A stretch of DNA of 64,000 nucleotides, from sequence record OM632664.1. One strand, written 5' to 3'. The notes under the pieces are model-generated. The model saw only the letters and a list, made by a program, of their open reading frames with translations. It was not told the origin of the DNA and ran no database searches. The position numbers and the translations under genes were made by a program. Below are positions 59,003-59,926 of this stretch, one piece after another. Position 1 is the first letter of the stretch. Each line of letters starts with the position of its first letter. Source of the stretch: Escherichia phage BEU5.

Positions 59003-59371
59003 ATGTTAGGTGATAACACTAATGCTCTGTTTGGGGTGTCAGCCAGACCTATTATCATTGTTAATAAACATCATGGTAAAAAGGGTGAATATATTGGGCG
59101 TGGTTCTCCTCTGGGTAATCCATTCGTTATTGGTAAAGATGGAACCAGAGAAGAAGTAATTGCCAAATATAAAGTATGGCTACAAGAACAGATTGATAAA
59201 GGTAATCCAGTTGTACTGGATGAATTAAATCGTCTTGGTAATAAAGCCATTGATGAAAAAGGATTAGCTTTACAATGCTTCTGTTATCCAAAACCTTGTC
59301 ATGGCGAGGTTATTAAAGAGAAGTTAGTAAAAGCTATGTATAACTACTTTGTGGAAAATCCTAATGGGTAA
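59003..59371 (+). CDS. DUF4326-like protein (candidate)
   Basis: motif string YIGRGSPLGNPF ... LQCFCYPKPCHGEVI resembles the pattern I associate with DUF4326 (GNPF ... LxCxCxPxxCHxxV). Confidence 0.35.
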   Translation: MLGDNTNALFGVSARPIIIVNKHHGKKGEYIGRGSPLGNPFVIGKDGTREEVIAKYKVWLQEQIDKGNPVVLDELNRLGNKAIDEKGLALQCFCYPKPCHGEVIKEKLVKAMYNYFVENPNG

Positions 59372-59549
59372 ACAATGCAAATGTGGTAAAGGCTATATAT
59401 CCCAATGGGATGGTAAGTGTGGTCATTGTAGAACCAAGAAAGAACAACGTGACCATGAATATGCACTTCAAGAAATGATTGTACCTGTTGAGAATTTAGG
59501 TATGGCTCCACTTGAGGCTTACAAATATATAAGGAGATTATGCAAATGA
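59364..59549 (+). CDS. small zinc-ribbon-like protein
   Basis: CKCGKGY ... CGHC pairs of cysteines; ATG overlaps upstream stop. Confidence 0.3.
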   Translation: MGKQCKCGKGYISQWDGKCGHCRTKKEQRDHEYALQEMIVPVENLGMAPLEAYKYIRRLCK

Positions 59550-59926
59550 AAGAAGTATTCGTATTTGGTTCTAACCTAGCTGGTGTACATGGTGCTGGTG
59601 CTGCAAAGACAGCATATAAGAAACATGGAGCCAGATGGGGTAAAGGGCATGGTCATTATGGTGACAGCTATGCCATTCCCACTAAAGATACCAATATCAA
59701 AACGATGACTATTGAAGACATTCGTACATTTGTAAAAGCCTTCATTGTCTATGCTGCTAATCATCCAGAACTTAACTTTAAAGTTACTCGTGTAGGTTGT
59801 GGATTAGCTGGTATTGATGATTCTGTTATGGCCTCTATGTTTGAAAATGCCACTGGTAACTGTTCCTTTGACTTAGCATGGAAAAGTTACTTAGGGGATG
59901 ATTTCAACTACTGGGGAACGTTCTAG
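59540..59926 (+). CDS. Gly-rich small protein, possibly macro-domain-like (ADP-ribose binding) - tentative
   Basis: VFVFGSNLAGVHGAGAAKTA resembles macro motif NAANxxLxGGGGVxxAI; later GDSYAIPTKD and VTRVGCGLAGIDDS resemble the other macro motifs; protein is short (128 aa) for a macro domain. Confidence 0.3.
   Translation: MQMKEVFVFGSNLAGVHGAGAAKTAYKKHGARWGKGHGHYGDSYAIPTKDTNIKTMTIEDIRTFVKAFIVYAANHPELNFKVTRVGCGLAGIDDSVMASMFENATGNCSFDLAWKSYLGDDFNYWGTF

Follow-up and report, generated by a model that had tools for sequence, protein, structure and literature searches.

Three overlapping small genes at 59003–59926 of a 64,000-nucleotide stretch of Escherichia phage BEU5 (sequence record OM632664.1; the whole stretch is called the window) are homologues of gp12, gp13 and gp14 of phage N4 and encode, in that order, a DUF4326 protein, a small protein with a putative zinc ribbon and a protein predicted to fold as a minimal macro domain. 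We put the chances at about even that these genes form a counter-defence module which erases ADP-ribose and is probably expressed early. A previous, sequence-only reading of the window had proposed an ADP-ribose-processing or host-takeover module; the domain identities behind that proposal were upheld, host takeover gained no specific support, and the catalytic activity, the substrate, the joint action of the three proteins and the host defence targeted are what we infer from these identities.

A 1.5-kb query around the trio was 100% identical to Escherichia phages BEU13, BEU44 and BEU51 in a sequence search and 98.3% identical to phage N4 at N4 positions 3202–4702. By the N4 RefSeq annotation the three open reading frames (ORFs) are gp12, gp13 and gp14, with gp12 listed as "DUF4326 domain-containing protein", and gp14 is directly followed by gp15 (RNAP1) and gp16, the pair of subunits that form N4 RNA polymerase II (RNAPII). 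The trio is arranged as follows:

59003..59371, + strand: gp12 homologue, DUF4326 protein, 122 amino acids (aa), by Pfam
59364..59549, + strand: gp13 homologue, putative four-Cys zinc ribbon protein, 61 aa, phrog_13804
59540..59926 (probable start 59546), + strand: gp14 homologue, predicted minimal macrodomain, 126–128 aa

The ORFs and their motifs were found where they had been described, directly upstream of a hairpin promoter. The gp12 start follows the gp11 stop by 2 nt and is preceded by an AAGGAG Shine-Dalgarno sequence 6 nt upstream. The best start of gp13 is ATG 59364, which gives an 8-nt overlap with the gp12 stop (ATGGGTAA); TTG 59349 of the ORF list is a less likely start. For gp14, either ATG 59540 (128 aa) or, more likely, ATG 59546 (126 aa) can be used, and the latter is favoured because an AAGGAG at 59531–59536 lies 9 nt off and because N4 RefSeq and most homologues agree with it. 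The overlap between gp13 and gp14 is 4 nt (ATGA) with ATG 59546 and 10 nt with ATG 59540. Matches to PHROG families were far beyond chance across the trio (E 2.5e-39, 6e-35 and 5.6e-57).

Fold and conserved residues of gp14

The structure of gp14 was predicted by AlphaFold2 from an alignment of 40 homologues, with a predicted local distance difference test score (pLDDT) of 87.9 and a predicted template modelling score (pTM) of 0.84. A Foldseek search of this model against the PDB returned almost only macro domains, with a probability of ~1.0, template modelling (TM) scores of 0.54–0.66 and modest E-values, from 7e-4; the matches included Bacteroides 2fg1/2afc, TARG1, DarG, Poa1p, and alphavirus and coronavirus macrodomains. 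On the strength of the predicted model, gp14 folds as a macro domain, with DarG, TARG1, Poa1p and viral macrodomains as the structures closest to it, in agreement with the earlier macro-like call, and the profile and structure searches did not lead to unrelated folds. When the gp12 and gp14 sequences were searched directly against the PDB, nothing significant came up. The best sequence match of the gp14 family profile in the PDB was TARG1, with an E-value of 0.28 that is not significant alone and agrees with the fold result.

The motifs of gp14 are FGSN12-x2-G-x-H17-G-x-G-A-A (the Gly-rich N-terminal motif, GSNLAGVHGAGAAKTA), P-T-K49-D and G86-C-G-L-A-G. Human TARG1 (OARD1, C6orf130) has K84 as its catalytic lysine, whose counterpart in DarG is K80. 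In the profile alignment AIPTK49D of gp14 fell on LITK84K of TARG1 and RVGCGLAG on RIGCGLDR, so that both the catalytic Lys84 and the RIGCGL loop have aligned counterparts in gp14. K49 thereby aligns with the catalytic-lysine T-K motif of the DarG/TARG1 class, which in AdfM of phage PhiKZ (gp104) reads PTKD. Using the PhiKZ AdfM sequence taken from its own paper, both BLASTP and hhalign placed gp14 N12 on AdfM N23 and PTK49D on PTKD. Substitution of that asparagine (N23A) lowers the de-ADP-ribosylation activity of PhiKZ AdfM, a protein that strips DarT2-written ADP-ribose off single-stranded DNA (ssDNA), neutralises DarT2 toxicity and was placed closest to bacterial DarG2 by its authors (PMC13309987). 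The second described AdfM, T4 Tk.4, is conditionally essential on DarTG2 hosts (preprint 10.1101/2025.11.20.689424). Both AdfMs are orphan phage DarG-like macrodomains, and gp14 aligns with the PhiKZ AdfM motifs, N23 included. The signature common to gp14 and PhiKZ AdfM is N-x2-G-x-[MH]-G-x-G-[ILA]-A, P-T-K-[KD] and a second loop G-x-x-G-G/A-L; it is also held in common with DarG (M. tuberculosis 5m3i, T. aquaticus 5m3e, Thermosipho DarTG 7omu), the comparison having been seen directly against PhiKZ AdfM.

Conservation was counted in 150 representatives of the gp14 family, one per 50%-identity cluster. N12 and H17 were each present in 149/150 sequences and K49 in 133/150, while G86, C87 and G88 were present in 145/150, 135/150 and 142/150, respectively. 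Both Gly-rich ADP-ribose/phosphate-binding loops, S11-N12...G18-A-G20-A-A and G86-C-G88-L-A-G91, are present, are invariant or nearly so, and match the equivalent AdfM and TARG1 loops in the alignments. A C-terminal segment, N-C-x-F-D...W...W-G, is specific to the family and conserved in gp14 homologues. The family itself is large: gp14 matches NCBIfam NF049995, "A1S_2505 family phage non-structural protein" (A1S_2505_Nterm; E 4.5e-45, 152 bits, cutoff 45), and the family has at least 7,998 matches among 90%-identity clusters, 4,223 clusters at 50% identity (E up to 1e-3), and occurs in 457 phage records, mostly Schitoviridae of many hosts.

Names given to gp14 in other records vary, being "macrodomain protein" in AlfredRasser/Bas69 and "ADP-ribosylglycohydrolase" in AL25, the latter propagated from Klebsiella phage KP8. 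Gene 55 of Rhodobacter phage RcGingersnap (Casjensviridae; locus L088, 2501–2869), a gp14-type macro, is labelled "ADP-ribosyltransferase", the opposite of the activity that the fold suggests. A phage-encoded ADP-ribosyltransferase that gp14 would reverse was considered and dropped, as none is annotated in N4 and the RcGingersnap label sits on a macro homologue; likewise, the "N4-like ART family" of a published survey (PMC9503650) was not tied to any N4 gene and may not mean phage N4.

The DUF4326 protein, the zinc ribbon and their fusions

The assignment of gp12 to DUF4326 (Pfam PF14216), first suggested by its motifs, was borne out by a score of 81.1 bits against a cutoff of 25 (E 9.4e-23). 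The protein carries GNPF at residues 38–41 and C92-F-C94-Y-P-K-P-C99-H100, and is a full-length member with all residues that are invariant in a 51-sequence alignment (N21, Y30, G32-R33, S35, G38-N39-P40, C92, C94, P96, C99, H100 and G101). In the predicted model (pLDDT 94.6) the Cys/His loop lies between the strand 88–92 and a long helix, 101–118. The model matched PTEN (4.4), many dual-specificity and tyrosine phosphatases (3.1–3.7) and NADAR (3.4–3.8), a weak resemblance to Cys phosphatases that extends to the sugar-phosphate-binding RapZ C-terminal domain. On the same model, the CCCH residues may just as well form a zinc site as provide a catalytic Cys. DUF4326 homologues were found in 1,300 phage records, including T4, whose NrdA.1 (locus L170, 6672–6998, − strand) is a DUF4326 protein with a CTCKPKPCHGD loop (hhalign probability 99.2%). 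Genes of this family are often mislabelled as "ribonucleotide reductase NrdA-like", "DNA repair protein", "DNA processing protein" or "antirepressor", and these labels look propagated from PHROG or neighbour names. DUF4326 has been predicted to process ADP-ribose-derived ribose phosphates and is found fused with domains of the Macro, SLOG and NADAR types (PMC9503650, PMC7824862).

The N-terminal half of gp13 reads C-x-C-G-K-G-Y-x-S-x-W-D-x-x-C-x-x-C-R-T. C5, C7, C18 and C21 (C5-x-C7...C18-x-x-C21) are invariant in 11 related loci and across 12 sequences, fusion proteins included, and the C-terminal half is variable. Judging by these conserved knuckles, the N-terminal half is a putative four-Cys zinc ribbon, as had been supposed from motif resemblance. 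No Pfam match was found for gp13, and its PHROG match was phrog_13804 (E 6e-35). The ribbon was detected by tblastn in 121 phage records. The gp13 gene is mainly limited to enterobacterial N4-like phages, where it lies between the DUF4326 and macro genes, and is a lineage-restricted accessory and no core part of the set. Residues 1–29 (window 59364–59450) show ~70% identity to parts of small proteins of SP6/K1E-like Autographiviridae, e.g., K1E gp12, and the ribbon could be a mobile unit that has a target of its own.

Proteins in which the domain types of the trio are joined were found elsewhere:

gp13-type ribbon (N-terminal) + DUF4326: Erwinia phage Fifi287 gp83, P0442, P0451, P0482 and locus L040
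DUF4326 + gp14-type macro: P0320
DUF4326 + gp14-type macro + DprA-like SLOG: P0385
gp14-type macro + DUF2493/YAcAr SLOG: P0277, P0278, P0350
gp14-type macro + DprA-like SLOG: P0259, P0318
gp14-type macro + NADAR: P0290, P0317
tandem gp14-type macros: six proteins

To judge from these architectures, fusions link the domain types of the trio, and the gp13 ribbon belongs with DUF4326. In contrast to the ribbon-DUF4326 fusions, the zinc ribbon of the N4 lineage is a separate downstream gene and not an N-terminal part of the DUF4326 protein. The link of DUF4326 to ADP-ribose and NADAR, which the sequence-only reading had raised, was found in the published literature and is reinforced by these fusions of the same domain types.

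Gene neighbourhoods and probable early expression

We examined 80 viral loci with a gp14-type macro, taking features within 6 kb into account. These loci are phylogenetically related, so that the counts represent non-independent events, and the fusions are the stronger evidence. RNAP1 was present in 56/80 loci and directly downstream of the macro gene in 49/80; most Schitoviridae have a conserved gp14, as a rule placed immediately ahead of the RNAPII genes. DUF4326 lay upstream of the macro on the same strand in 28/80, and several loci that do not belong to the N4 genus have it directly next to the macro. Canonical DUF4326 immediately adjoins the macro in five loci of divergent Schitoviridae (L023, L031, L063, L071 and L073), and a Cys-less DUF4326 lies directly upstream of it in three loci of other Schitoviridae (L022, L035 and L057). 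The gp13 ribbon and gp11 were each found in 11/80 loci, all of those with gp11 except L031 also having gp13. A DUF2493 SLOG gene was part of the same cluster in 11/80, including KP8, where it is also noted in the KP8 paper.

The DUF2493/YspA-type SLOG gene of KP8 (ORF14; locus L011, 3787–4155), also present in L009 and L010, lies between gp9-like and gp11-like genes, a position at which N4 and the window hold only the 58-aa gp10. No SLOG or NADAR was recognisable in the window. Given this absence and the presence of gp10 at the position of the SLOG gene, N4 can be viewed as having a reduced SLOG + DUF4326 + Macro set. One further locus, L090 (JANQNF010000027.1), a 69-kb contig of an "archaeon" metagenome-assembled genome, carries gp9, gp11, DUF4326, the zinc ribbon, a macro (72% identity), RNAP1 and RNAP2, and almost certainly represents an N4-like phage whose genome was mis-binned into that archaeal assembly.

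The genes upstream of the trio and the elements relevant to its transcription are as follows:

58182..58517, + strand: gp9 homologue, probable degenerate DUF4326 paralogue, phrog_464 (E 4e-20)
58680..59000, + strand: gp11 homologue, 106 aa, phrog_7827 (E 5e-55)
55484–55496, + strand: virion RNA polymerase (vRNAP)-type hairpin, GTTGC-TTC-GCAAC, upstream of gp1
55949–55965, + strand: vRNAP-type hairpin, AAGAAGC-TCC-GCTTCTT then TTTTGG, upstream of gp2
59944..59960, + strand: P3-type vRNAP hairpin promoter, 7-bp stem and 3-nt loop, AAGCTGC-TCC-GCAGCTT then TTTTGG
~55891–55916, + strand: terminator-like GC-rich hairpin and T run after gp1, from the sequence
56477–56503, + strand: terminator-like GC-rich hairpin and T run after gp2, from the sequence
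57921–57952, + strand: terminator-like GC-rich hairpin and T run between gp7 and gp8, an annotated terminator in phage AL25

Against Pfam DUF4326, gp9 scored 21.9 bits (E 2.8e-4), under the cutoff of 25, and it matched the A2 profile with an E-value of 4.5e-9. It keeps xNPF and is without any Cys or His of the CxCxPxxCH loop, so that gp9 is probably an inactivated DUF4326 paralogue, as far as its residues tell. No match to gp11 was found in Pfam, NCBIfam or PADLOC, and PADLOC gave none for any of the five proteins; gp11 is syntenic with gp12–gp14 in enterobacterial N4-like phages. A degenerate DUF2493/YspA SLOG in gp11, suggested by eye and by the DUF2493 gene nearby in KP8, was unsupported (hhalign E 0.068, probability 0.8%, 25 residues).

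The hairpins at 59944–59960 and 55949–55965 have the same architecture and the same GCTCCGC...TTTTGG core, and the hairpin near 55484–55496 is of the same design. The template strand at the former offers −8G, −9C, −10G, −11G and −12A, which are the bases that vRNAP contacts according to the N4 literature (PMC4496689). The P3-like promoter recognised previously was confirmed in these respects; it bounds the trio and drives gp15/gp16 (RNAPII), and is thus context that lies outside the module. The trio has the P1 and P2 hairpins upstream of it and P3 directly downstream, and closes the gene block before the P3-type promoter. No terminator-like hairpin was seen in the same-strand gene block from gp9 to the trio. 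A scan of 58000–60300 for sigma-70 promoters and intrinsic terminators gave no more sites than shuffled sequences did, and the stretch from gp14 to P3 had none. The position of the gene suggests that gp14 is made early in infection, and the overlapping, coupled arrangement suggests that the three genes are co-expressed at similar levels.

Elsewhere in the window, the longest ORF of gp16 starts at 60822, 36 nt upstream of the N4 RefSeq start at 60858 (416 vs 404 aa), and the AL25 annotation takes the longer form. N4 position 1 maps to window ~55399, so that the physical end of the genome falls inside the window, the assembly being permuted, and a run of eight C occurs at ~55432–55439.

Function proposed for the trio and its alternatives

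In the reading that we favour, gp14 would be a minimal macrodomain of the DarG/TARG1 class that is catalytically competent and most likely hydrolyses ADP-ribose off a nucleic-acid base. Base de-ADP-ribosylation is the best supported activity because DarG has the nearest fold, both the Asn and the Lys are conserved, and fusions of this macro type to NADAR occur. The prime candidate substrate would be thymidine-linked ADP-ribose placed on ssDNA by DarT2-type host toxins, as for AdfM in T4 and PhiKZ. A second enzyme of the same pathway may be provided by gp12, whose strand, Cys-His loop and helix may form a site resembling those of cysteine phosphatases and rhodaneses and which is predicted to process the ribose-phosphate product or adduct; gp13 would be a zinc-ribbon accessory of the DUF4326 enzyme, the two being the same polypeptide in other phages. 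Together, gp12 and gp13 would add a second step (phosphate or phosphoribose processing) or a targeting function. N4 middle transcription uses single-stranded templates. The early promoters of N4 function in the form of extruded hairpins that SSB stabilises (PMC4496689). Through such extruded or single-stranded templates N4 may be unusually exposed to ssDNA-specific ADP-ribosyltransferases, and this exposure would explain the near-core presence of gp14 beside RNAPII in Schitoviridae.

Several observations weigh against this reading. Pfam Macro (PF01661) misses gp14 (no match at E up to 1), whereas T4 Tk.4 and PhiKZ gp104 both pass it as ordinary members; gp14 falls in the separate A1S_2505_Nterm family. 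The similarity of gp14 to PhiKZ gp104 is marginal (BLASTP E 1e-3; hhalign E 2.4e-4, probability 43%), and that to T4 Tk.4 is not significant (hhalign E 0.11). Because the AdfMs pass Pfam Macro and the gp14 profile shows no significant similarity to Tk.4, gp14 is set apart from AdfM orthology; on these profile comparisons it is a separate minimal lineage within the DarG/TARG1-like group and no orthologue of the described AdfM proteins. Compared with DarG, gp14 is ~25 aa shorter. Just four residues precede its first aligned strand, so that the opening ~15 residues of the DarG-like PhiKZ AdfM are unmatched in gp14; this AdfM segment probably includes the first strand and an adenine-contacting Asp, judging by macrodomains in general. 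His17 is family-specific and invariant, and replaces the Met of PhiKZ AdfM; Met occupies this position also in DarG and TARG1. Where TARG1 has the acidic D125, gp14 has Ala90, invariant in the A1 alignment and Ala in 141/150 representatives, while PhiKZ AdfM has Gly at the same position with an Asp two residues on (GCANGGLD vs GCGLAGID); S35 of TARG1 is replaced by the invariant N12. The missing N-terminal segment, Ala90 and His17 imply that the substrate of gp14 may differ.

The genetic context adds to these points. Relative to DarG as the antitoxin of DarTG2, gp14 is a single domain with neither a C-terminal DarT-binding domain nor an adjacent DarT, and would be an orphan at best; the N4 records list no DarT2 among their annotations. 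Among 80 bacterial and archaeal loci with a gp14-type macro, a phmmer search with one query, and therefore of limited sensitivity, found a DarT2 neighbour in none, and the two chromosomal contexts sampled look housekeeping (an amidase and a membrane protein in one; a metallophosphoesterase, peptidase C26, a WYL regulator and an exonuclease in the other). For these reasons the gp14 family is not simply "DarG", and the idea that gp14-type macros are antitoxins of bacterial DarTG operons was rejected on the evidence of these 80 loci and two contexts. In the viral loci, DUF4326 was not near the macro in 52/80 and gp13 was absent in 69/80, and roseophages and some other relatives carry the macro gene elsewhere in the genome. 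As no promoter-like hairpin was noted in 57880–58000, upstream of gp8, and a terminator-like hairpin follows gp7, early expression of gp8–gp14 presumably needs read-through. The T4 screen with DarTG2 recovered only tk.4 and not the DUF4326 gene nrdA.1 (preprint 10.1101/2025.11.20.689424), so that DUF4326 is no obligatory partner of a macro eraser. No experiments on the function of N4 gp12, gp13 or gp14, and no papers on Schitoviridae macrodomains, were found in the literature.

The main rival holds that the module degrades soluble ADP-ribose (ADPr) derivatives, i.e., TIR/Thoeris-type signals, ADPr-1''-phosphate or ADPr>P toxins, or O-acetyl-ADP-ribose (OAADPr), with gp14 acting on the distal ribose like Poa1p/MacroD and gp12 removing the terminal ribose phosphate. 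Such substrates are the ones favoured in the published prediction for phage combinations of Macro, NADAR, SLOG and DUF4326 (PMC9503650), and the fusion of gp14-type macros to SLOG domains or their location beside them, the stand-alone bacterial copies in housekeeping-like contexts with no toxin partner, and the phosphatase- and RapZ-like features of gp12 all fit this view. Some records even call gp14 homologues "Macro domain Poa1p family", after the type that comprises ADP-ribose-1''-phosphatases and OAADPr deacetylases. The closest fold is nevertheless DarG, and gp14 has, unlike Poa1p, the TK lysine typical of the DarG/TARG1 clade; H23 and S30 of Poa1p presumably do not align with gp14 His17. 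The NADAR fusions fit adduct removal, NADAR reversing guanine ADP-ribosylation on DNA, and DNA adducts are what both of the phage macrodomains that have been tested act on; phage NADARs (AdfN) remove DarT1-written guanine adducts (PMC11825919). We regard degradation of soluble derivatives as possible but rather unlikely. That the three genes are mere neighbours, with gp14 a lone ADP-ribose hydrolase and gp12 and gp13 engaged in DNA or nucleotide metabolism, would agree with the position of DUF4326 genes beside nrdA in T4-like phages and with the DUF4326 fusions to replication and restriction-modification components reported in a jumbo-phage survey (PMC7824862). It would also agree with the 52 loci lacking DUF4326 within 6 kb, with the canonical DUF4326 located 2 kb away in Achromobacter phage Axy10, with the unlinked DUF4326 (nrdA.1), macro (tk.4) and NADAR (30.3) genes of T4, and with the recovery of tk.4 alone in the DarTG2 screen. 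The independent fusions of DUF4326 to a gp14-type macro (P0320, P0385), the five loci in which the two immediately adjoin and the co-expression suggested by the coupled trio argue in the other direction, and we consider this explanation improbable.

Host takeover, by reversing or reading endogenous E. coli ADP-ribosylation or by reprogramming the host, or with gp14 as a non-catalytic ADP-ribose reader, seems to us very improbable. In its favour count N4 gp8, which we take to target the host clamp loader, and the retention of gp14 across most Schitoviridae before the RNAPII genes, which is more core-like than expected of a sporadic anti-defence gene. Early phage products generally serve host takeover, and other N4 early genes are described as acting on host processes (PMC4496689). 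On the other side, N4 has no annotated ADP-ribosyltransferase that would need an eraser, and neither PADLOC nor any other match points to a different role for the trio. To our knowledge, little endogenous ADP-ribosylation is known in E. coli K-12. A mere reader is, moreover, argued against by conserved residues that align with tested or catalytic residues of relatives.

The ADP-ribose-erasing reading can be extended to a broader proposal, which we consider quite improbable as a whole. The gp14-type proteins would make up a clade of minimal DarG-like macrodomains that is very large yet invisible to Pfam, with an invariant loop His and without the N-terminal ~15 residues of AdfM, and would be near-core before the RNAPII genes in Schitoviridae because extruded or single-stranded templates are a substrate of ssDNA-specific ADP-ribosyltransferases. 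DUF4326 with the ribbon would be a nucleic-acid ADP-ribose/phosphoribose repair enzyme that works with macro or NADAR erasers, and it could be the helper that T4 AdfN needs for full activity, T4 NrdA.1 being a DUF4326 protein.

The idea is not new for the trio, as public records already call the genes DUF4326 and macrodomain; the association of Macro, SLOG, NADAR and DUF4326 was described in 2021–2022 and macrodomain anti-DarT factors in 2025–2026. What is added here is a distinct and abundant DarG-like clade that escapes Pfam, the connection of the gp13 ribbon with DUF4326, and the probably inactivated DUF4326 paralogue of N4. N4 is a classic model phage, most of whose early genes have no assigned function. 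Assignment of gp14 as a putative DarG-like eraser gives it a directly testable role, and the Schitoviridae include therapeutic phage candidates. DUF4326 is widespread in phages and giant viruses, and the compact N4 trio, together with the matching fusions, offers a tractable experimental entry to its biochemistry. The strategy of orphan-antitoxin counter-defence, described for AdfN and AdfM, would thus be extended to a third phage family by way of a distinct macrodomain clade.

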